A DNA stretch of 64,000 nucleotides from the NCBI GenBank assembly GCA_963796685.1, contig CAWCMR010000025.1:1856001-1920000 (forward strand), in the 5' to 3' direction. The DNA is from an uncultured delta proteobacterium (GTDB lineage: Bacteria; Myxococcota_A; Polyangia; Fen-1088). A program made the position numbers and the translations under genes. Shown one piece after another: positions 13,003 to 21,184 of the stretch. The notes under the pieces are model-generated. The model was not told where the DNA came from. It ran no database searches and saw only the letters and a list, made by a program, of their open reading frames with translations. Every line of letters starts with the position of its first letter. The stretch's first letter is position 1.

Positions 13003-13185
13003 GCTGCCTCCTTCTTCAACAAATGCCGAGCAAGAGGGCTCCAGGGCTCCAACACTGACTACCTCATCTGCGCCGCGGCCGTGCAACGAGGATTCGCCAT
13101 CCTGACGAAGGATACAGACTTTGCGCGCTTCGCTCGGGTACTCCCGATCGAGCTGCACACCCCGCGCTCGTCGGTGACTGGCTAA
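13003..13185 (+). pseudogene. VapC/PIN toxin C-terminal fragment
   Basis: CRARGLQGSNTDYLICAAA...ILTKDTDF; N-terminal half absent. Confidence 0.8.
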
Positions 13186-13349
13186 CGCGTTGCCCTTACC
13201 CTTAAGCGGTGGGTGGCCGTCCGCGGCCGTGCATCCGCTTCAACGCCTTGTTCGGCGCCGGCCTGGCTGGGGCGCCACGGTGGGAGAGTCCGAAAAGTAC
13301 GCCGCCAAGCCGGCGCTGCGGGATTGCCTGCTGCAACGGCTTGTTAGCC
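13180..13349 (-). other. attC site 13180-13256 plus an extra R''/L'' half-site ending at 13349
   Basis: minus strand GGCTAACAAGCCGTTGCAGC ... GCCGAACAAGGCGTTGAAGC ... GCGTTAGCC. Confidence 0.8.
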
Positions 13350-13359
13350 GGCTACCAGG

Positions 13360-13380
13360 CTGCTAGCATAATGCTAGCAG
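13360..13380 (+). promoter_or_regulatory. palindromic operator overlapping a -10-like CATAAT of the TA operon
   Basis: CTGCTAGCAT-A-ATGCTAGCAG perfect inverted repeat ending 8 nt before the antitoxin ATG. Confidence 0.7.
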
Positions 13381-13387
13381 GCGAACC

Positions 13388-13615
13388 ATGGCAACTCTCA
13401 CGATTAGAAATGTCCCCGAGAAGGTCACAAAGTCTCTAAAGACTCTAGCCCGAAAGAACCATCGTTCGATGGAGCAGGAGGTGCGCGAGCTCATCAACGA
13501 ACACGTCGGTGAACGACTCTCTGTCCTAGACCAAATCGAAGCCGGATGGGTCAAGCAGACACGTCGTCCGACCGCTGCTGAGGTCGAAGGATGGATCGCC
13601 ACGGGGCGAGAATGA
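13388..13615 (+). CDS. FitA/Arc-like ribbon-helix-helix antitoxin
   Basis: MATLTIRNVPE...LK..A..NHRSMEQEVR. Confidence 0.9.
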   Translation: MATLTIRNVPEKVTKSLKTLARKNHRSMEQEVRELINEHVGERLSVLDQIEAGWVKQTRRPTAAEVEGWIATGRE

Positions 13616-14022
13616 AAGCGGTCGTCGATACGAACGTCCTCGCGTATTTCCTTTTGGGCACGCGATCATTCGTAGAGGAAGCCGGCCGCTTCTGGCACGC
13701 TCTCGATGGTGCCCTGGCGCCGGCGGTGTGGGAAGCGGAGTTGGCGAATGTCATTTGGATGGCCGTACGCTCCGAGGTCATTCCGGGCGAGGAGGGCAGG
13801 AAACGTCTCAGCCTCGCAGGGAAGATGGGAATCCAGTCCGTCCCGAGCAAGACTTTGTGGCACGGTGCTCTTGAGCGGGCGGTTCGCTCGGGGGTGGCGG
13901 TGTACGATACCCTGTTCGTCGAACTTGCCTGTCGCGAGAACCTCCCACTTGCAACCTTTGATGCGAAAGTGCTCGCGGCATTTCCCGAGATTGCCCTCCG
14001 CCCGAAGGTTCTCGCCCCGTAA
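13612..14022 (+). CDS. VapC family PIN toxin
   Basis: VVDTNV, E..N, YD..FV.LA, LATFD; ATGA overlap with antitoxin. Confidence 0.9.
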   Translation: MKAVVDTNVLAYFLLGTRSFVEEAGRFWHALDGALAPAVWEAELANVIWMAVRSEVIPGEEGRKRLSLAGKMGIQSVPSKTLWHGALERAVRSGVAVYDTLFVELACRENLPLATFDAKVLAAFPEIALRPKVLAP

Positions 14023-14036
14023 CAACTGAACCCCAG

Positions 14037-14144
14037 ACGGAGGTCGGTACTTTCAAGCGCTTCAGTCGGCCTAGCGAGCTGATGGGCTTCACCGGACTCG
14101 TGCCAAGCGAGCACTCCACCGGCCGACGCGAGGCCAAGGGAGGC
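14037..14144 (+). pseudogene. IS110-family transposase internal fragment
   Basis: translates TEVGTFKRFSRPSELMGFTGLVPSEHSTGRREAKGG, typical of the IS110 C-terminal (Transposase_20) domain. Confidence 0.8.
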
Positions 14145-14184
14145 ACCGGCAGGTCGGGGATCTGCCGGGACGATCGGAACACGG

Positions 14185-14370
14185 TCACCTCACAAACCGC
14201 TTCTTAACATCCTCATGCGACAGGCCCAGTCCCGCCTCTGACTGTTCCAGGCCGCGCTCGATCTTGGCCAAGAAGTACAGGCGCTCCATCGCGTCCTCCA
14301 CCGTCGCATCATCCGGTAGATGCTCGACGATCTCCATGATCTTCTGCTTCACGCTGGGGGAGGAACCCAT
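14185..14370 (-). CDS. orphan small antitoxin-like protein (family usually upstream of RelE/ParE)
   Basis: LPDDATVEDAMERLYFLAKIERGL......SHEDVKKRF. Confidence 0.7.
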   Translation of the reverse strand: MGSSPSVKQKIMEIVEHLPDDATVEDAMERLYFLAKIERGLEQSEAGLGLSHEDVKKRFVR

Positions 14371-14421
14371 GTCTGAAAGATAGCATACGGCCGGAACTCG
14401 TGCCGCGATGGCTGCTCGTCC

Positions 14422-14545
14422 GCCCAACGCCCAGCTCAGTCTGGACCTGGGATAGCTGCGGGCCCGCCGCACTCGCCGTCCCCTCGATGATACTACGATG
14501 TCCCTGGCGGCGGGACCGTCAGTCAGCTTCATCGGCTTGTTCGAC
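14422..14545 (-). other. attC site
   Basis: minus strand GTCGAACAAGCCGATGAAGCTGAC ... GACTGAGCTGGGCGTTGGGC. Confidence 0.8.
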
Positions 14546-14824
14546 GGCGGACGCTCGCAACAATTCTTGCTACCAGGAGTCCAGCAGCGAGCGCCGCGAG
14601 AAGGAGGCTGGCTACGAAGCAAACACCCCAGCGTCGGCGTGCCAAGTTGCGCGCATCGCGGCCACGCAATCCGGATCGGCTTTTCGGCTTCTGCAAACGT
14701 GCGCCTGTAGGACAAGAGGAGCGATCCCAATGCCGAAGAGAAGGTAGCCGACTCCCAAAGCCACGACCGCCGCCGTAAAGAACAGGGGCCACAGTGTTGC
14801 GGTCTTTGTCATCGGTATCGCCAA
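14529..14824 (-). CDS. small two-TM membrane protein cassette, apparently frameshifted
   Basis: hydrophobic segments lie in two overlapping frames (14612-14824 and 14529-14792) between two attC sites. Confidence 0.45.
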
Positions 14825-14839
14825 GATGGTTCCCCGTCT

Positions 14840-14904
14840 GTCGAACGCCTTGCCGTTAACGCGCGGGCGCGCAAGCGCCCGTCGCGTTCAACGCCTTGTT
14901 CGAC
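14840..14904 (-). other. attC site
   Basis: minus strand GTCGAACAAGGCGTTGAACGCG ... GCGTTAACGGCAAGGCGTTCGAC. Confidence 0.9.
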
Positions 14905-15383
14905 GGTGCCTCGCCTCCTTGAATCAGACTTTGCCTTCCTATTGGACTCAAGCCGTCGTTGTAGATGTTGACGGCATCATATATGTGGCTCAGCCCCGTG
15001 GCACCCACGACGGCTCCGCCTGTGAGCGACGCGAAGCCCGTGATAGCAAGGGCGGCGGATATGTCTCTGTGCCCACCGTTACCACTTGGGTTCACGGCAA
15101 TCGCGGTCGCCAGAGACGCCAGTGCTACTGCGGTCAAGATTGCCCAGATCCTCGATCGCTGAACGAAGACCCGCGCATGATCCTCAGCAACTGGGTTGCC
15201 TGTAACGGCGCGGATCGGATCACTCGACAGCCCGCTCGCACCGTATCTTTGGCCGTCTTTGTAGAGGGAGATTCCAGGACCGTCCAAGACGAAGCTGACT
15301 CGTCCCGAATCTTGAGGACGATAGCTCGTGGCGCATCCCGCGAAGAGCAATCCGATGCTGACGACAACAGCTGCCAATTTCAT
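14856..15383 (-). CDS. hypothetical lipoprotein with two TM helices (cassette; reads into attC)
   Basis: MKLAAVVVSIGLLFAGC lipobox; two hydrophobic segments; DAVNIYND motif. Confidence 0.75.
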   Translation of the reverse strand: MKLAAVVVSIGLLFAGCATSYRPQDSGRVSFVLDGPGISLYKDGQRYGASGLSSDPIRAVTGNPVAEDHARVFVQRSRIWAILTAVALASLATAIAVNPSGNGGHRDISAALAITGFASLTGGAVVGATGLSHIYDAVNIYNDGLSPIGRQSLIQGGEAPSNKALNATGACAPAR

Positions 15384-15416
15384 GGAACCTTTGCACTCCC
15401 CTAAAGAATTGCATCC

Positions 15417-15487
15417 GTCGAACGCCTTGCCGTTCAGCTGCGAGCGGCCGTCCACGGCCGATCGACAGCTTCAACGGCATGTTAGGC
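15417..15487 (-). other. attC site
   Basis: minus strand GCCTAACATGCCGTTGAAGCTG ... CAGCTGAACGGCAAGGCGTTCGAC. Confidence 0.92.
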
Positions 15488-15715
15488 CGCGTCCCGCATA
15501 GCTCGGGCTACCGGTCGCGGAAGCGCGAGCGGCACGAAAAACTTCTCCGGGTAGAGATAGTCTTCACCGGACTCGTCCACAACCCGCACCAGACCGCGCG
15601 CCGCTGCGGTACGATCCGCCACACGCTCGTAGAGTCGGCGCACCAGGAGCGAAGCAGGATAACCATCGTTCCTGACACAAAGTACGTAGCTCTTCGTTGA
15701 CCTTGTCTTCTTCAT
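15482..15715 (-). CDS. small hypothetical protein (second gene of a TA-like pair)
   Basis: CVRNDGYPASL...RVVDESGEDYLYP; stop codon lies in the attC R'' box. Confidence 0.8.
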   Translation of the reverse strand: MKKTRSTKSYVLCVRNDGYPASLLVRRLYERVADRTAAARGLVRVVDESGEDYLYPEKFFVPLALPRPVARAMRDAA

Positions 15716-15954
15716 CGCAACACACCAAGCAGGCGCTTGATCTTGAACTCTTTCCGGCCGACGCCGTGACTTTCGTACCAGTGTACCTCAGCGGGCGATG
15801 TCGTTCCATCCGGCAGTCGAACGACGGCTATGCCCTTCATCTTTCGCCAACGCCCGCGACCGTAGACCTTCTGAAGTCTCGCGGTTTCGCGGATTTTCCC
15901 GCCGACGGCGATCACCTCCTCGCCGGCAATCTGGCCGACGATCTCGAAGGCCAT
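15712..15954 (-). CDS. small basic hypothetical protein (first gene of a TA-like pair)
   Basis: YG.GRWRK.KG...EVHWYE.HGVG..EFKIK; 4-bp overlap with the downstream gene. Confidence 0.8.
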   Translation of the reverse strand: MAFEIVGQIAGEEVIAVGGKIRETARLQKVYGRGRWRKMKGIAVVRLPDGTTSPAEVHWYESHGVGRKEFKIKRLLGVLR

Positions 15955-16768
15955 GGGGCTCAACCTCAAAGAGAAGAGCAGCGGCACCATGCACGGCCAG
16001 ATCAAGATCACCAAACGTGGTCCGTCCCGGGTGCGCCAGCTCCTGTGGCTCGCCATTTTCCGTTGGATTCAGAAGGATCCCATCGCCAACGCCTGGTACC
16101 AACGTAAAAAGCAGCGCGACGGTGGCCGAGCCTCGCGGGCCGCGGTCGCGCTGATGCGCAAGCTGGCCAAGGGCCTCTTCCACGTCGCTCGTGGCGTCAT
16201 CTTCGACAGCAGCAAGCTCTTCGACACCCGTCGTTTGCAGGTGGCGACGTAGCCATGGTGGTCTTCGGCCGATCCATGTTGAACATTCTCGATTTCCGAG
16301 GAGTGACCTTCAGTTGCAGCGTATCTCTGCCTCGTGCAAGAGCGCCATCAGTCTCGAGGCACCCCGCGGACCTTTGACCTGACCTGCCCATATGGTCAGA
16401 CCCGATTACAGGAAAGGAGCAACCAACCCCAGTCAACGAATGCTTTGAACGTGTGAGATCTCCGACGGGTGACCTTCTGTTGAAGCTCATCTCTGCCTTG
16501 CGCAAGAGCGGCGTCCATTTCGAGGCACCCTGAGGATCTTCGACCTGACTCAATCTCCGTTGCCAGCTGACTCGGTGCCGTGACCTGCGGACATCCTACT
16601 GGAGCGTTTCGCTTACCCTGGCCGATTGCCTCCGGATCTCTCACCCGCTCAACCCGACCCGCGCAGGTGTTTCCTATTGCCGCTTTCTCTTCTCGCGGAA
16701 CGGATCTCGTGTGCCCTCAGCAGCCCGATCACTCCCTGTTCTTTTTGCTTGCACTCCGTACGAGCGAG
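15947..16768 (+). mobile_element. IS110-family element remnant (transposase C-terminus plus about 515-bp 3' non-coding end) inserted in an attC
   Basis: KAMGLNLKEKSSG...ITKRG..RVRQLL...A.VALMRKL (to 16252); right end abuts the attC half-site CGCTGCAACGGCTTGTTCGGC. Confidence 0.85.
16279..16549 (+). ncRNA. putative bridge/seek RNA with two tandem 105-bp target-loop-like modules (16279-16383, 16445-16549)
   Basis: 82/105 identity by manual alignment; conserved stems, variable loop segments matching attC. Confidence 0.6.
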
Positions 16769-16789
16769 CGCTGCAACGGCTTGTTCGGC
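16769..16789 (-). other. attC half-site (R''/L''), disrupted by the IS110 element
   Basis: minus strand GCCGAACAAGCCGTTGCAGCG. Confidence 0.85.
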
Positions 16790-16800
16790 GGCTCTCACCT

Positions 16801-17232
16801 TCACGGAACCAATTCCAGGGCCTGGGACAGGCGAGGACCAATTCGGATAGCACCAAGGTCGCGCCTATCGGTCGTCAAAACTCGATAGACGCGCCGTCGT
16901 TCAGCCACTGCAGCTACGGTGCCATCAACCAAACCGAGGTTGAGTCCCGCAAATCTTGCATCCAGTTCCATGGATCTCGCGATGTCGGACGGAAGAGGTA
17001 TTTCATACTCGTATCGTGTTCCTGGATCGAAGATGTCCGCGACCAGCCTTCTCATGGCTGCGCGGTTGTCTCTGAGAAAGTAGTCAACCTCGGCGAGAAC
17101 GAGCCCCGGCACGATTACCGAACTTGCTGACGCTAGCGCCTCCTCGTACTCCGGAAAGCTTGGCGCGCCATCTCGGCCGCAAGCTAGCGCGCGAAGGAGT
17201 CCACCGGTGTCTGCGACAAGCGCTGATCTCAA
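16801..17232 (-). CDS. VapC family PIN toxin
   Basis: ADTGGL, VLAEVDY, LGLVDGTVAAVAE, LTTDRRD. Confidence 0.9.
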   Translation of the reverse strand: MRSALVADTGGLLRALACGRDGAPSFPEYEEALASASSVIVPGLVLAEVDYFLRDNRAAMRRLVADIFDPGTRYEYEIPLPSDIARSMELDARFAGLNLGLVDGTVAAVAERRRVYRVLTTDRRDLGAIRIGPRLSQALELVP

Positions 17233-17456
17233 TCCTTGAGATCCTTGAAAAGTAGGGACTCATCGCCAAGTTTGCTGTCGGTCGATTCGAACAGACTGGT
17301 CGTGGGGGGCCGGCGGCCCGAGTAGTACCGCGAGGCCACAACGCGCAACCCCTTTCGGATAAGCTCCGAAGCCGAATGCCCCGCAGCACGAGCCTTCTTC
17401 AAAGCTCGGATGTCATCCTCTTCCAGTCGGACCGTGGTTGAAGTGAGACGCGCCAT
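17229..17456 (-). CDS. ribbon-helix-helix (CopG-like) antitoxin
   Basis: TTVRLEE...S.SELIR; overlaps the toxin start. Confidence 0.85.
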   Translation of the reverse strand: MARLTSTTVRLEEDDIRALKKARAAGHSASELIRKGLRVVASRYYSGRRPPTTSLFESTDSKLGDESLLFKDLKD

Positions 17457-17517
17457 ACACTCACCATACATCGCAAAGACAGGCTGCGGCAACGGTTTCT
17501 CGTAGCCGCAACAGTCC

Positions 17518-17622
17518 GCCCAACGCTTTGCCGTTAAGCGGCGAGCCCGCCGCACGAGCGGTTCGCTGATGTTACTCCGATTTCCCTGCGGCGGGATCGT
17601 CCGCTGCAACGGCTTGTTCGGC
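17518..17622 (-). other. attC site
   Basis: minus strand GCCGAACAAGCCGTTGCAGCGGACG ... CCGCTTAACGGCAAAGCGTTGGGC. Confidence 0.92.
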
Positions 17623-17698
17623 AGCAGCCACGACTCGAGAGAGAGGTTTGTGCCAGCATCAGACTGGACTCGGCCATTTCTCAGAGTATCGTGTTTCA

Positions 17699-18919
17699 GT
17701 GGTAACATCTCCCCGATTTGTCCTCGCAGAACCTGACTCCTTCCTTCACTGGCTGGCGTCCGGCGAATCCGATCTGTCCCTCGATGCCGTTGATGTCATG
17801 GAGGTATGGGCTTTGGTTGGGCTAGCCACCCTCGCCAGGAGAGGAAATGTCACCCCGATACAACTGGATACGAGTGGTGGAAAACCTGCCACCCGGTTTG
17901 CAAAGGCCCTCGGCATTGATAGCGTAATCGAGGGTAAGGTAGCTGCGGGGCCGGTGGAGGAAGGCCGTACGGTAAGGCTCACCAATATCCAAGGGTTTCC
18001 TGGTCGCTCCCCGTACGAGGTTGCAGGCGAGATCGCCAAACTCGCGATACCAGATGACACCGATGACACGCATCACACGATCTACTACGTGCTTGCCGAA
18101 CTCCTGCGGAATGTTGTGCAGCACAGCTACGATAAGCTCGGTGGTATCGTAGCAGCTCAACTCATGTCTGCAGGGCGCGGTGGTTACGACCGGGACACCG
18201 TACAGGTGGCTGTCGCAGACGCCGGGATCGGCATACCTGAGAGTCTGCGCCACTTCCATCCCAAGTACGATGACGCTGCTGCTGCGCTCGTTCGTGCACT
18301 TGACCCACACGTTTCCGGAAAATTCGAACCGGGCCTGTCTGGGACTGAGGAGAATGCTGGACTGGGGCTTTTCTTTATTGCGGAGATGGCAAAGCAGGCG
18401 GCCGGCCGCTTGTTGATCGCGACGCGAGGCGCACGTCTGTTACTTGAGGGGGCCAGATCAGGTCAGCCGCAGCGTCTCGACGTAAAACCAGTTGGGTTCT
18501 CCGGAACATTGGTGGCGTTTGAGCTTCCGGATCGCGGCGTTGGGAGCAACCACGATCTGCTTCAAAAGATCAACGAATTGGCTCGACAGCGCACTCCCAA
18601 ACGCGTCACCGAGCACTGGTTAAGGTACGAGGCGGTCCCCAAAGGCGTGCAGCGATTCCTTGTCTCCATTGCAGCAGAAGACACAACTGCCGCGCGATCA
18701 TACTCAGAAGGACAATTGGAACCGCGGCTAGTAGAACGGGAGTCAGTTGCCCTCGATTTTGCGAACCTGTCGATTTGCACGCAGAGTTTCCTTCACGCCT
18801 TGTTGTATGAAGCTCTCCGACTTGCCTGGGCGAAGCGAGTGCCGATTTACGTGATGAATGTGAGACCAGCAGTGCGGAGCAGCCTTGATCTTTTGGAAAG
18901 CTACGCTCTGGGCGGTTGA
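17699..18919 (+). CDS. GHKL (HATPase) domain protein with C-terminal STAS-like (DUF4325-type) domain; inverted cassette
   Basis: ELLRNVVQHS, DAGIGI, NAGLGLF, FSGT boxes; LDF.......SFLHAL. Confidence 0.82.
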   Translation: MVTSPRFVLAEPDSFLHWLASGESDLSLDAVDVMEVWALVGLATLARRGNVTPIQLDTSGGKPATRFAKALGIDSVIEGKVAAGPVEEGRTVRLTNIQGFPGRSPYEVAGEIAKLAIPDDTDDTHHTIYYVLAELLRNVVQHSYDKLGGIVAAQLMSAGRGGYDRDTVQVAVADAGIGIPESLRHFHPKYDDAAAALVRALDPHVSGKFEPGLSGTEENAGLGLFFIAEMAKQAAGRLLIATRGARLLLEGARSGQPQRLDVKPVGFSGTLVAFELPDRGVGSNHDLLQKINELARQRTPKRVTEHWLRYEAVPKGVQRFLVSIAAEDTTAARSYSEGQLEPRLVERESVALDFANLSICTQSFLHALLYEALRLAWAKRVPIYVMNVRPAVRSSLDLLESYALGG

Positions 18920-18960
18920 ACTCAAACGGCCACCAGCGCACGACCGGAACAGTTGTGTCT

Positions 18961-19065
18961 GCCGAACGCCTTGCCGTTAAGCGGTCTGGGCGCCGCCAAG
19001 CCGACGCCGCGATTCTACGCCGATGCCGCTGCGGCGACCAGATCCACTGCAACGGCTTGTTCGGC
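18961..19065 (-). other. attC site
   Basis: minus strand GCCGAACAAGCCGTTGCAGTGG ... CCGCTTAACGGCAAGGCGTTCGGC. Confidence 0.92.
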
Positions 19066-19237
19066 GGCGGCCGCTACTTTGGCAATCCTGGCAGGACGGA
19101 GCGCCAATCAACCTCCGCGAATCGACAGACATACGCGAAGCCCATCGATCCCATGGCTGGGAATCGCTGTGAGACTGTTGCAGAGGTCTTCTGAATACAG
19201 GAGGCGCCACGCCCGGCAAACGCCTTCGACTCCCGCG

Positions 19238-20305
19238 CTAGGGTGAGATCCGTCCGATCTTGTTGCCAGCGCATTCCGTGAACCAGAGATTTCCGTCCGG
19301 CCCGCCTACGATTGCAACCGGCTCGCTGCCCGGACTTGGCAACGGAAATTCGGTCACGGTGCCAGCGGGGGAGATTCGCCCTATCTTGTTGCCTTGGGAC
19401 TCCACAAACCAGACATTGCCGTCGGAGCCCGCCGTGATTCCGTTCGGGTAGCTGGACGTGGTCGGAATATCGAATTCGGTTATGGTCCCGCTGATCGTGA
19501 TGCGACCAATCTTGTTGGTCGAAGATTCGGTGAACCAAAGGTTGCCATCAGCACCGGTTGCGATGTGCGCGGGGCCAGAGAGAGGGGAGGGAACAGGAAA
19601 TTCATGGATATCCCCACCTGGAGTCATCTGTCCAATCCGGTTTGCGGCGTACTCAGCGAACCAGATATTGCTATCAGTATCGCAAGCAATTCCGCTCGGC
19701 CCGCCAGTAAGCCCGTCTGCCAGGCTGGGGATCCGAAATTCGTTGATCGTACCCGCAAGAGCGCCGGTCGGCGTAATCGAGGCTAGGTTCTTGGCCCAGC
19801 TCTCGGTGAACCAAAGACCTCCGCTTGGGCAACTAACGATTTCATCCGGTTGGCTCCTCGGAGTGGCGATTGGAAATTCGGTGACTGTCCCCGTGGGAGT
19901 AATACGACCTATCGCATCTCCGCCGAGGACACTATAGGGTGCCCACAAACTGCCTCGCTCGGTAAACCAGAGATTGCCGTCTCCCCCGGCTGCGATTGCA
20001 GTAGGCGCGCTACCGGGAGAGAGCGAGAACTCGCTCACACCTCCGACAAGCGTGATCCGTCCGATCTTGTCACTACTGAACTCGGTGAACCACAGAGCGC
20101 CATCCGGCCCGGCGGCGATTCCGGAGGGGCAAGTCGCCGCGGTGAGGACGGGAAACTCTGCAATCGATCCCGCGGCGCGCCAGCTGTCTCCGCCAGCGCT
20201 GTCGATAGCCGCTCCGTCTGCTGGCATCGGACCTGAGTCAGAACCGCAGGCCGCGAGGGTAGTCGAAAGGAGAATGAGCGCAAACGCACGAGGCTTGAGA
20301 AGCAC
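19238..20305 (-). CDS. Vgb (virginiamycin B lyase)-family beta-propeller lipoprotein (cassette)
   Basis: LAAC lipobox; seven P.GI..GPDG.LWFTE...KIGRI repeats. Confidence 0.88.
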   Translation of the reverse strand: MLLKPRAFALILLSTTLAACGSDSGPMPADGAAIDSAGGDSWRAAGSIAEFPVLTAATCPSGIAAGPDGALWFTEFSSDKIGRITLVGGVSEFSLSPGSAPTAIAAGGDGNLWFTERGSLWAPYSVLGGDAIGRITPTGTVTEFPIATPRSQPDEIVSCPSGGLWFTESWAKNLASITPTGALAGTINEFRIPSLADGLTGGPSGIACDTDSNIWFAEYAANRIGQMTPGGDIHEFPVPSPLSGPAHIATGADGNLWFTESSTNKIGRITISGTITEFDIPTTSSYPNGITAGSDGNVWFVESQGNKIGRISPAGTVTEFPLPSPGSEPVAIVGGPDGNLWFTECAGNKIGRISP

Positions 20306-20458
20306 ATCAGGATCTTACTCGCTTGCCGGCAAAGGGGCAATAGCTCGCAGCGGAGATCGCAGCGGAGACCGGGGTGTGACAGCCACCACGCGCTGGCCGC
20401 AATACCACACCGTATTGCTCCCGCTGGTGAAGCGAGGTTTCCTGAGTGGATTTCGTCC

Positions 20459-20565
20459 GCCGAACGCCTTGCCCTTCAGACTGCAAGCCCGCCGCCGAGC
20501 CCGGCCGTTCGATGATACTGCGATTTCCCTGCGGCGGGATCGTCAGGTGCAACGGCTTGTTGGGC
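20459..20565 (-). other. attC site
   Basis: minus strand GCCCAACAAGCCGTTGCACCTGACG ... GTCTGAAGGGCAAGGCGTTCGGC. Confidence 0.9.
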
Positions 20566-20580
20566 AGCCCTTCAGCCGCA

Positions 20581-20616
20581 CGACGTCTTGACGTCATAAC
20601 GTTTCTGCGCCATGAT
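20581..20616 (+). promoter_or_regulatory. sigma70-like promoter with GACGTC operator repeats for the RelE TA operon
   Basis: TTGACG-17-CATGAT; two GACGTC palindromes at the -35; ATG 7 nt after the -10. Confidence 0.65.
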
Positions 20617-20623
20617 TCCACTC

Positions 20624-20854
20624 ATGGCCCTGGCAAAGCGCGCAACTGTCTACCTTGAACCCGACCTGCACCGCGCCCTTCGAATGAAGGCCGCGGAGAC
20701 AGACCACACGGTTTCCGACCTGGTGAACGACGCTGTCCGGCAGCAGATGTCGGAAGATGCGGACGACCTTGAGGCATTCCGAGCACGGGCGAAAGAGGCC
20801 ACGTTGCCCTTCGAGACGCTGGTTCGGGACCTGAAGCGTCGTGGCAAGCTATAG
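20624..20854 (+). CDS. CopG/RHH antitoxin
   Basis: KRATVYLEPDLHRALRMKAA....SDLVNDAVR; acidic C-terminus. Confidence 0.88.
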   Translation: MALAKRATVYLEPDLHRALRMKAAETDHTVSDLVNDAVRQQMSEDADDLEAFRARAKEATLPFETLVRDLKRRGKL

Positions 20855-21098
20855 GATCGAGGTCAAGAGGTCCGCCTCCAAGGAGATCGCCGACCTCCCC
20901 AAGGCGGAATGCCAACGCGTGGTCGCGCGGATCCAAGCACTTGGGGACGAGCCGCGCGCGCATGGCTGCGAGAAACTGACCGGCGACGACAAGTATCGCG
21001 TTCGGCAGGGTAACTACCGGATCCTTTACGAAATCGACGACGAATCCAGGGTGATCACCATCGTGAAGGTCGGGAATCGCAAAGAGGTCTATCGCTGA
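20841..21098 (+). CDS. relE: RelE/ParE family toxin
   Basis: Y.I.....A.KE, KL.G...YRVRQGNYRILYEID, KVGNRKEVYR. Confidence 0.92.
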   Translation: MASYRIEVKRSASKEIADLPKAECQRVVARIQALGDEPRAHGCEKLTGDDKYRVRQGNYRILYEIDDESRVITIVKVGNRKEVYR

Positions 21099-21110
21099 CC
21101 GAGCGGGTCT

Positions 21111-21184
21111 GCCCAACGCTATGGCGTTCACCTGCGGGCGGGCGCCGCAGGCGACCGACCGTCAGGTGCAACGCCTTGTTGGCC
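21111..21184 (-). other. attC site (first cassette)
   Basis: minus strand GGCCAACAAGGCGTTGCACCTG ... CAGGTGAACGCCATAGCGTTGGGC. Confidence 0.92.

Follow-up and report, generated by a model that had tools for sequence, protein, structure and literature searches.

A 64-kb stretch of contig CAWCMR010000025.1 from an uncultured delta proteobacterium (the window, whose positions are used throughout) carries at 15946-16764 the 3′ part of an IS110-family element, comprising the last 99 transposase codons and a 512-bp non-coding region, inserted in an integron attC site. We consider it likely that this is a 5′-truncated, immobile copy of an attC-targeting element whose 3′ region encodes a bridge/seek RNA with two paralogous target-binding loops (TBLs, the repeat units below) and one donor-binding loop (DBL). 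In its family the number of target loops varies naturally, from one to three beside a separate DBL. An earlier note on this DNA had proposed that two tandem target loops form a multiplexed guide; our analysis supports the two loops and adds a separate DBL, and the guide of the last unit showed no association with insertion flanks.

Relatives were collected as numbered loci (L-numbers), 17 from a scan of species-representative genomes and 80 from a scan of metagenome contigs. A search of 89 genomes of the same order gave matches in 10, the window's genome included, and 15 further stretches were taken. The repeat unit was detected with an nhmmer unit profile in 69 loci, 55 of which have a complete non-coding region (two of these are re-fetched contigs, L115 being the same as L007 and L116 the same as L013). 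One unit was present in 18 of the 55 complete regions, two in 36 and three in one (L008).

Insertion site, repeat units and donor-binding loop

The open reading frame (ORF) at 15953-16252 (+) matches the C-terminal half of Pfam PF02371, Transposase IS116/IS110/IS902 (E 2.2e-07), in agreement with the IS110-family transposase C-terminus named in the earlier note. The BLAST-type search for full-length copies that the note had proposed returned L002, which lies in the same genome and is 95% identical at the DNA level over 1-839 of 843 query bases. Its 422-aa transposase, P0001, carries the N-terminal DEDD domain (PF01548 DEDD_Tnp_IS110, E 2.9e-09) and the C-terminal Transposase_20 domain (PF02371, E 4.7e-15) by which the IS110 family is recognized, and the window keeps the PF02371 part only. 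L002 sits inside an attC, reading ...GCGCCCGTC / AGTCAGCTAAAGG ... CCGTACGAG / CGCTTCAACGGCTTGTTAGCC across its junctions. In an alignment of eight relatives, left-end conservation begins at AGTCAGCT and right-end conservation stops at ..TACGAG. Excising AGTCAGCT...CCGTACGAG from the L002 site restores normal attC geometry, with arm lengths as in an intact neighbour, and therefore no target duplication is present. In all loci with both junctions the element lies between ..GTC and NGCT[G/T]CAAC of attC, the exceptions with extra bases on the right side being the window (4 nt), L026 (8 nt) and L007 (10 nt). The domains of the full-length copy and the insertion site bear out the proposal of an attC-targeting IS110-family element.

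No credible gene lies in the 512 bp between the transposase stop and the right end (16253-16764). This region holds a 105-nt direct repeat (16279-16383 and 16445-16549), whose identity we recomputed as 78%, the same 82/105 as originally counted. In each unit an outer stem (GGGTGACCTT / GAGGCACCC) encloses an inner hairpin (CTCTGC / GCAAGAG), both with a bulged A, and the two loop strands lie 5′ and 3′ of the hairpin. For the pairing test this structure, proposed by eye in the earlier note, was entered by hand. Over 78 distinct units 95.4% of its stem cells are able to pair, compared with 31-53% when the partners are slid by 1-3 columns, which upholds both the outer stem and the inner hairpin. 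Column entropy is 0.10 bits in the stems of 26 first units and 0.04 bits in those of 27 last units; it rises to 0.82 and 0.68, respectively, in the hairpin loops, with the guides intermediate. RNAalifold recovered the outer stem only from the 78 units, and the U:G pairs in stems of 16253-16764 are consistent with a plus-strand RNA. The structural support is comparative. A single-sequence fold of 16253-16600 was no better than shuffles (z 0.36), and Rfam at gathering thresholds returned nothing in the window.

The loop strands match the insertion site. In the window the 5′ guide of TBL1, GTTGCAGCG, is the exact reverse complement (9/9) of the flank CGCTGCAAC at 16769-16777, as had been noticed, and the 5′ guide of TBL2, GTTGAAGCT, is the reverse complement of AGCTTCAAC at 15467-15475 in a neighbouring attC. 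This second match sustains the earlier claim that copy 2 fits the other attC variant in the array. The further site cited for it did not hold, as GTTGAAGC is absent at 13180 and the complement, GCTTCAAC, lies at 13237-13244. The 3′ segments had been read as complementary to top-strand bases of attC; instead, their sense is that of the left flank (..CCGTC / ..CCATC), the core and the element start, and they would pair with the bottom strand. Along the 3′ loop strand the left flank (CGCCGTC or a variant of it) comes first, then AG, TG or CG, and then TC, the next left-end bases, and in full-length relatives the TBL1 segment corresponds to the left flank ..CCGTC followed by AG and the TC of the left end.

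We compared the reverse complement of loop bases 4-12 (a 9-mer) with the right flank in 34 non-redundant insertions. The best unit matched its own flank at 273 of 306 positions, against 253.9 ± 3.8 when flanks were shuffled, and none of 20,000 shuffles reached 273. The match is complete (9/9) in the window and in L009, L012, L018, L027, L031, L038, L042, L048, L056, L081 and L087. Rare guide variants go with rare flanks: unit 1 of L008 (CGCTGCAAT) and the unit of L081 (TGCTTCAAC) each match their own flank at 9/9, and AGCTTCATC in L055/L057 matches (T/C)GCTTCATC at 8/9. Taken together, these comparisons of sequence support both repeats as paralogous TBLs of a bridge/seek RNA with full TBL anatomy, and thereby two tandem target loops in one putative guide RNA.

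The earlier note could identify no donor loop. A DBL is present downstream of the second unit, at 16563-16611. The reverse complement of its 5′ guide, CGAGTCAGCTGG, holds G + AG + TCAGCT, in which the final right-end base runs on into the left end, and its 3′ guide reads as right end, dinucleotide (core) and then the first target-like bases. In at least five divergent lineages the DBL guides change together with the element ends. The right junction and the DBL 3′ guide read ACGAG/CG and GGAG-CG-TTTC in typical loci, ACGAG/AG and GGAG-AG-TTTC in L013, L050 and L051, ACGAG/CG/CT and GCGAG-CG-CT in L056, ACAAG/TG/CTTC and GTAAG-TG-CTTC in L063, L065, L081 and L086, ACAAA/TG and CAAA-TG in L069, and ACAAG/AG/GTTC and CAAG-AG-GTTC in L072. 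The DBL 5′ guide likewise follows the left-end change from TCAGCT to TCGGCT in L069 and L061, and L062 retains a G:U pair. Within the DBL hairpin four of seven pairs show compensatory changes and none is broken in 36 sequences. Single-unit elements combine one target-type unit with this same DBL. In L075, L078, L083 and L091 the DBL region is broken after CCGTTGCAAGCT by ~80 nt of unrelated GC-rich palindromic sequence, and in L083 and L091 the transposase gene is interrupted too.

The dinucleotides that open the right flank and the left end behave as the core. These are CG/CG in L056 and TG/TG in L069; in L081 the right junction and both guides have TG, as does the left end by eye. At the second core position G is almost fixed; at the first, the left end mostly has A and the right flank has C, A, T or G, with one flank (L023) having GC as its core. 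Placing the core within the element, as TC, CG or AG, was rejected, since only NG, with the start of the right flank equal to the start of the left end, fits L056, L069, L081 and the guides. With this NG core the first base is still discordant in most copies. For IS621, one core base is described as nearly fixed and the other as loose (PMC11208158).

All ten loci with a 54-69%-identical transposase have one unit (L056, L061, L062, L063, L065, L069, L072, L073, L081 and L086); L087, listed at 58% identity from a partial match, has two. The window's genome has four units in total, in two elements. In a midpoint-rooted tree of 78 distinct units over 87 columns, with support values uninspected, the first and last units of two-unit elements fall into separate groups, and the single units of L013, L050 and L051 group with the last units. 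First-unit guides are mostly of the TGCAAC type and last-unit guides almost always of the TTCAAC type. Taken with the conserved stems, this grouping suggests a single old duplication whose two copies have stayed under constraint. By this account the TBL would have been duplicated once in the ancestor of the clade with 80-95%-identical transposases and both copies retained. The upstream copy would then have diversified, mostly to TGCAAC-type attC sites, and would account for most observed insertions, the donor-proximal copy remaining mostly of the TTCAAC type.

Possible use of the second target loop

We propose that the guide RNA is transcribed and bound by the transposase and that its loops act as independent modules, by analogy with IS621. 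The 5′ strand of a TBL would pair with the top strand of the core and right target ([A/C/T]G + CT[G/T]CAAC of attC), and the 3′ strand with the bottom strand of the left target (..CCGTC) and core. Two further bases of the 3′ strand would match the first bases of the element after strand exchange. The DBL would read the circle junction likewise, as right end ..ACGAG, core AG and left end TCAGCT. In IS621 a synaptic complex takes its TBL and its DBL from different RNA molecules, and recombination is supported by loops supplied separately (PMC11208158), and split bridge RNAs work in human cells (bioRxiv 10.1101/2025.05.14.653916), which suggests that any one of several TBLs could team with the single DBL. 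Excision is described as using the same RNA and requiring matching flanks (PMC13626964; PMC11187229), so that an extra loop would widen the set of sites that an element can leave.

Under this proposal it is possible that the second TBL is a working alternative guide and that multiplexing is active. Tentatively, we extend this to all tandem TBLs as live guides, giving one to three target specificities per element that share a single DBL. New specificities would come from loop duplication and divergence, the old copy keeping the ancestral site. Two different TBLs could also bring two attC sites into synapsis, so that cassettes would be rearranged with no need for the integron integrase, because loop-bound recombinase dimers pair freely in IS621-type systems.

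The use of each unit was assessed in 27 non-redundant insertions of multi-unit elements with 20,000 shuffles. The first-unit guide tracks the flank, with 214 matches compared with 195.4 ± 3.5 in shuffles, none of which was as high. A set of other observations weighs against the reading given above. The last-unit guide is not associated with the flank (191 matches versus 191.9, with 13,916 of the 20,000 shuffles as high), in a test of low power because this guide is nearly invariant. The tabulation of flanks against loops that had been called for agrees with the guide hypothesis for the first unit and not for the last. The better flank fit belongs to the first unit in 19 of the 27 insertions, is tied in five and belongs to the last unit in three. 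In genome G036, five insertions of one two-unit element have flanks that are all TTCA[AT]C (one is TTCATC). They fit unit 1 (CGATTCAAC, hexamer TTCAAC) and never unit 2 (AGCCACAAC, CACAAC); scored by eye, three favour the first unit, two are ties and none favours the last. One-base mismatches also occur (L010, with TTCAAC guides, sits in a TGCAAC site), and because of this the few unit-2-type insertions could reflect mismatch tolerance of unit 1.

Further points concern the core, the stems and expression. The two guides of a single loop disagree on the core, an inconsistency that the earlier note had already remarked on, the first core base often differs between donor (AG) and target (CG), and unit 2 of the window carries CA where relatives have an [A/T/C]G core. 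Covariation in the TBL stems, which the earlier note had listed as a check, was not significant in units whose stems are 95.4% pairable: there were three double-change pairs versus 1.6 in shuffles, almost nil because the stems barely vary. Metatranscriptome contigs 80-95% like the region were present in four libraries from four studies, one spanning 16324-16515 (unit 1 into unit 2) and another 16453-16642 (unit 2 into the DBL). They give a weak hint that the region is transcribed, as they derive from relatives only, do not show strand or ends and may be DNA carry-over. A promoter scan of 15800-16900 found no sigma-70-like promoter.

Unit 2 might instead be a conserved RNA module that no longer guides insertion or never did, with the upstream unit alone picking targets. 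It could serve as a decoy or as a scaffold on which the ribonucleoprotein is assembled or processed, or be a duplicate in slow decay. We regard this as rather unlikely, though the absent flank association, the three of 27 insertions that favour the last unit, the five G036 insertions that ignore unit 2 and the CA in the window's unit 2 all speak for it, as does the observation that the handshake bases of many last units are TT and the left end is TC. Against it, nothing else in the region is as conserved as the stems of the last units, while nearby spacers vary, which argues against decay. The loop also keeps a plausible attC target (NGCTTCAAC), and such sites exist in the host arrays: among 153 loosely defined attC-like sites in this genome both classes are represented, with CGCTGCAAC occurring 19 times, AGCTTCAAC three times, AGCTTCATC four times and CGCTTCAAC four times, and the exact target of the window's unit 2 is in the neighbouring attC at 15467. 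The last unit fits the flank better than the first in L024 (flank AGCTTCAAC, 9/9 versus 7/9), L029 (flank AGCTTCATC, 8/9 versus 5/9) and L075 (8/9 versus 7/9), and in single-unit relatives the unit at that position is the working target loop.

Unit 2 could instead be the DBL itself, the RNA then being an ordinary two-loop bridge RNA with similar target and donor loops. The 5′ guide of unit 2 hardly changes from element to element, as expected of a donor guide, and its identity in the window and L002 had led us to suspect this; GTTGAAG is moreover present, in the same sense, at left-end bases 16-22 of L002. The guides of unit 2, however, mismatch the circle junction (..CCGTACGAG + AGTCAGCT), whereas 16563-16611 matches that junction, covaries with both ends and has a covarying hairpin, and single-unit elements pair one target-type unit with a separate DBL. 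The left-end motif is unconserved (GTTGCAA, GTTAAGA and GTTGAGT in relatives) and does not follow unit 2, so that a reading of this motif by unit 2 was rejected as well. Since the guides of a separate downstream loop covary with the element ends, we dropped the suspicion and consider it very improbable, and the outcome that the earlier note had named as fatal to its proposal, a second unit that is merely the donor loop, did not occur. That the repeat is a meaningless accident of one decaying copy can be dismissed, because although the window copy is truncated and immobile, the two-unit layout recurs in the intact L002 and across many assemblies (36 of the 55 complete non-coding regions), and the units form two paralogue clades.

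Family placement and known systems

On sequence grounds we provisionally file the element as a separate attC-homing lineage that would work like an IS1111-type seekRNA element. With the IS1111 elements ISKpn4, ISPst6 and ISPa25, as described by Siddiquee et al. 2024 (PMC11187229), it shares a non-coding region downstream of tnp (512 bp here), a top-strand match lying 5′ of the bottom-strand match, subterminal inverted repeats, the lack of a target duplication, and insertion in one attC arm at one position and in one orientation. It differs from them in a transposase of 422 aa rather than 330-350 aa and in a duplicated target loop, one pair of target matches per RNA being described there. It also differs in its ends. 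In the IS1111 group the subterminal inverted repeats are described as 11-13 bp long, with 7 bp beyond them on the left and 3 bp on the right (PMC11187229), whereas in the best inverted repeat of L002 the right end matches left-end bases 20-37 at 15 of 18 positions, leaving 19 nt to the left tip and 14 nt to the right one. This inverted repeat is weaker or different in L008, L009, L056 and L069.

The likeness to the IS621 / IS110 bridge RNA (Durrant et al. 2024, PMC11208160; Hiraizumi et al. 2024, PMC11208158) extends to a recombinase with DEDD and Tnp domains, a single RNA in which the two strands of each internal loop read opposite DNA strands in the left and right halves of target and donor, a core of 2 nt in which one base is nearly fixed, handshake bases beside the guide that match the partner DNA after exchange, and loops that work as separate modules. 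Here, by contrast, the RNA lies 3′ of the gene (5′ in IS621), the guide order is reversed, with the top-strand guide 5′, the core is NG (CT in IS621), there are one to three target loops (one in IS621), the transposase has 422 aa and the target is attC. Group IIC-attC introns, as described in PMC3001079, are also mobile elements that home to integron-cassette attC by RNA-DNA pairing; they use a self-splicing ribozyme and reverse transcriptase, in contrast to the DEDD recombinase and guide RNA of this element.

Bridge/seek RNAs are described as having one target loop and one donor loop, and a lineage in which target-loop number varies shows that these loops behave as modules in evolution. The literature searched held no mention of tandem or multiple natural target loops in such RNAs, with the long seekRNA folds of ISKpn4, ISPst6 and ISPa25 in the supplement of PMC11187229 lying outside the comparison. 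Variable TBL number suggests a route by which an element could change or widen its target choice while keeping the old one. For engineering, it offers a natural scaffold for guide arrays on a single transcript. For integron biology, the lineage adds a new attC-homing element that is abundant in Myxococcota-type genomes of soil and peat, interrupts attC and leaves footprints. An analogy can be drawn with CRISPR arrays, in which several guides of different specificity likewise stand in tandem between constant structured repeats. In the present element, however, there is no spacer acquisition, the modules are whole stem-loops that have duplicated and diverged, with at most three seen, and they direct recombination rather than cleavage.

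Transposases 37-42% identical to P0001 are encoded in Methylococcales and Nitrosomonas assemblies (L015-L021). ISKpn4, ISPst6 and their relatives occur on plasmids in PLSDB. In a tblastn search, no plasmid-borne IS110-family transposase was more than 30% identical to the 422-aa protein. At the L002 circle junction, TTGCAC of the right end would fall 17 nt upstream of TAAAGG of the left end by eye, and the two could form a junction promoter of the kind reported for the family.

The remnant in the window and the attC cluster

The family is active in the window's genome and in relatives, and the copy in the window is a dead remnant (Table 1). This copy is immobile because the left end and an intact transposase are both missing. 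As the earlier note had seen, the left part is deleted: nothing of the element lies left of ~15946, where homology to the full-length copy begins. At the truncation junction (15946-15954) nine bases (GAAGGCCAT) are common to the element and to the first three codons of a minus-strand cassette ORF (~15715-15954, MAFEIVGQ...), which suggests a deletion at a 9-bp microhomology. Neither this ORF nor the cassette ORF at 15482-15715 (-) has a Pfam match.

Table 1. Positions of the remnant, its putative guide-RNA parts and the adjoining attC half-site in the window
Feature	Position	Strand	Basis and remarks
IS110-family transposase, 3′ remnant	15946..16252	+	PF02371; left end and ~320 codons missing
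3′ non-coding region, putative guide RNA (two TBLs, one DBL, right end)	16253..16764	+	alignable across relatives from transposase stop to right end
TBL1, candidate	16291..16374	+	outer stem GTGACCT/AGGCAC, 5′ guide, inner hairpin 16325-16342, 3′ guide; nhmmer unit model, stem pairing, conservation
TBL1 5′ guide GTTGCAGCG	16313..16321	+	would pair with top strand of core and right target CGCTGCAAC
TBL1 3′ guide CGCCATC-AG-TC	16343..16353	+	left target, core, first bases of element (handshake-like)
TBL2, candidate paralogue of TBL1	16457..16540	+	nhmmer; last-unit clade; 5′ guide GTTGAAGCT 16479-16487; 3′ guide CGGCGTCCATTTC 16509-16521
DBL, predicted	16563..16611	+	5′ guide CCAGCTGACTCG 16563-16574; hairpin 16575-16594; 3′ guide CCTACTGGAGCGTTTCG 16595-16611
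Right end	16733..16764	+	subterminal inverted repeat 16733-16750, then terminal extension ending ..CCGTACGAG
Extra CGAG	16765..16768	+	duplicates last 4 nt of right end; lies between right end and target
Interrupted attC, right half	16769..16789	+	core and right target CGCTGCAAC, GGCTT, GTTCGGC (R′ box); layout as in intact attC sites of array

The non-coding region had been given as about 515 bp ending exactly at an attC half-site. The region is real and measures 512 bp, but its right end, which in the family has the conserved form ..C[CG][GT]TACGAG, closes at 16764 (..CCGTACGAG), and the four bases CGAG intervene before CGCTGCAACGGCTTGTTCGGC, an attC right arm resembling others of the array. 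CGAG in this position is absent from L002 and most relatives, and no other right end has it in the same form. Extra bases between right end and target occur elsewhere as well: L026 has CGTACGAG, an 8-nt repeat of the right-end tip, and in L007/L115 the 10-bp TCCGACCGTC flanks the element on both sides. The extra bases in the window, L026 and L007/L115 may come from re-insertion beside footprints. The spacer between the two units contains a hairpin (CTGACC ... GGTCAG, 16371-16412), which close relatives retain and in whose place L007 has another hairpin, and which could be a processing or termination signal between the loops.

Ten attC right arms lie on the plus strand at 13224-21152. Most cassette ORFs of this cluster are on the minus strand, and a PIN-domain gene is at 16801-17232 (-). 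No match to the PF00589 integrase was found in the 64-kb window, the nearest on the contig being >50 kb away, and 13224-21152 looks like an attC cluster without a nearby integrase.

Some attC sites hold short pieces of element ends. The right arm at 14513-14545 reads CCGTC-AGTC-AG-CTTCATC, with AGTC, the first four bases of the left end, between left target and core; it looks like the footprint of an imprecise excision at the second AG of the left end. In G000, an attC on contig C11 (~85042-85086, CCCGTC-TGCCTACGAG-CG-CTGCAAC) and another on contig C10 (~13729, minus strand, ..ATCTACGAG-AG-CTTCATC) carry the right-end tip only, with no element upstream. The two right-end-like matches were rejected as further elements, being short footprints in which only the last 8-10 right-end bases are retained, and these remnants are probably excision footprints. 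Short right-end-only matches are present in relatives too (L112 and L114).

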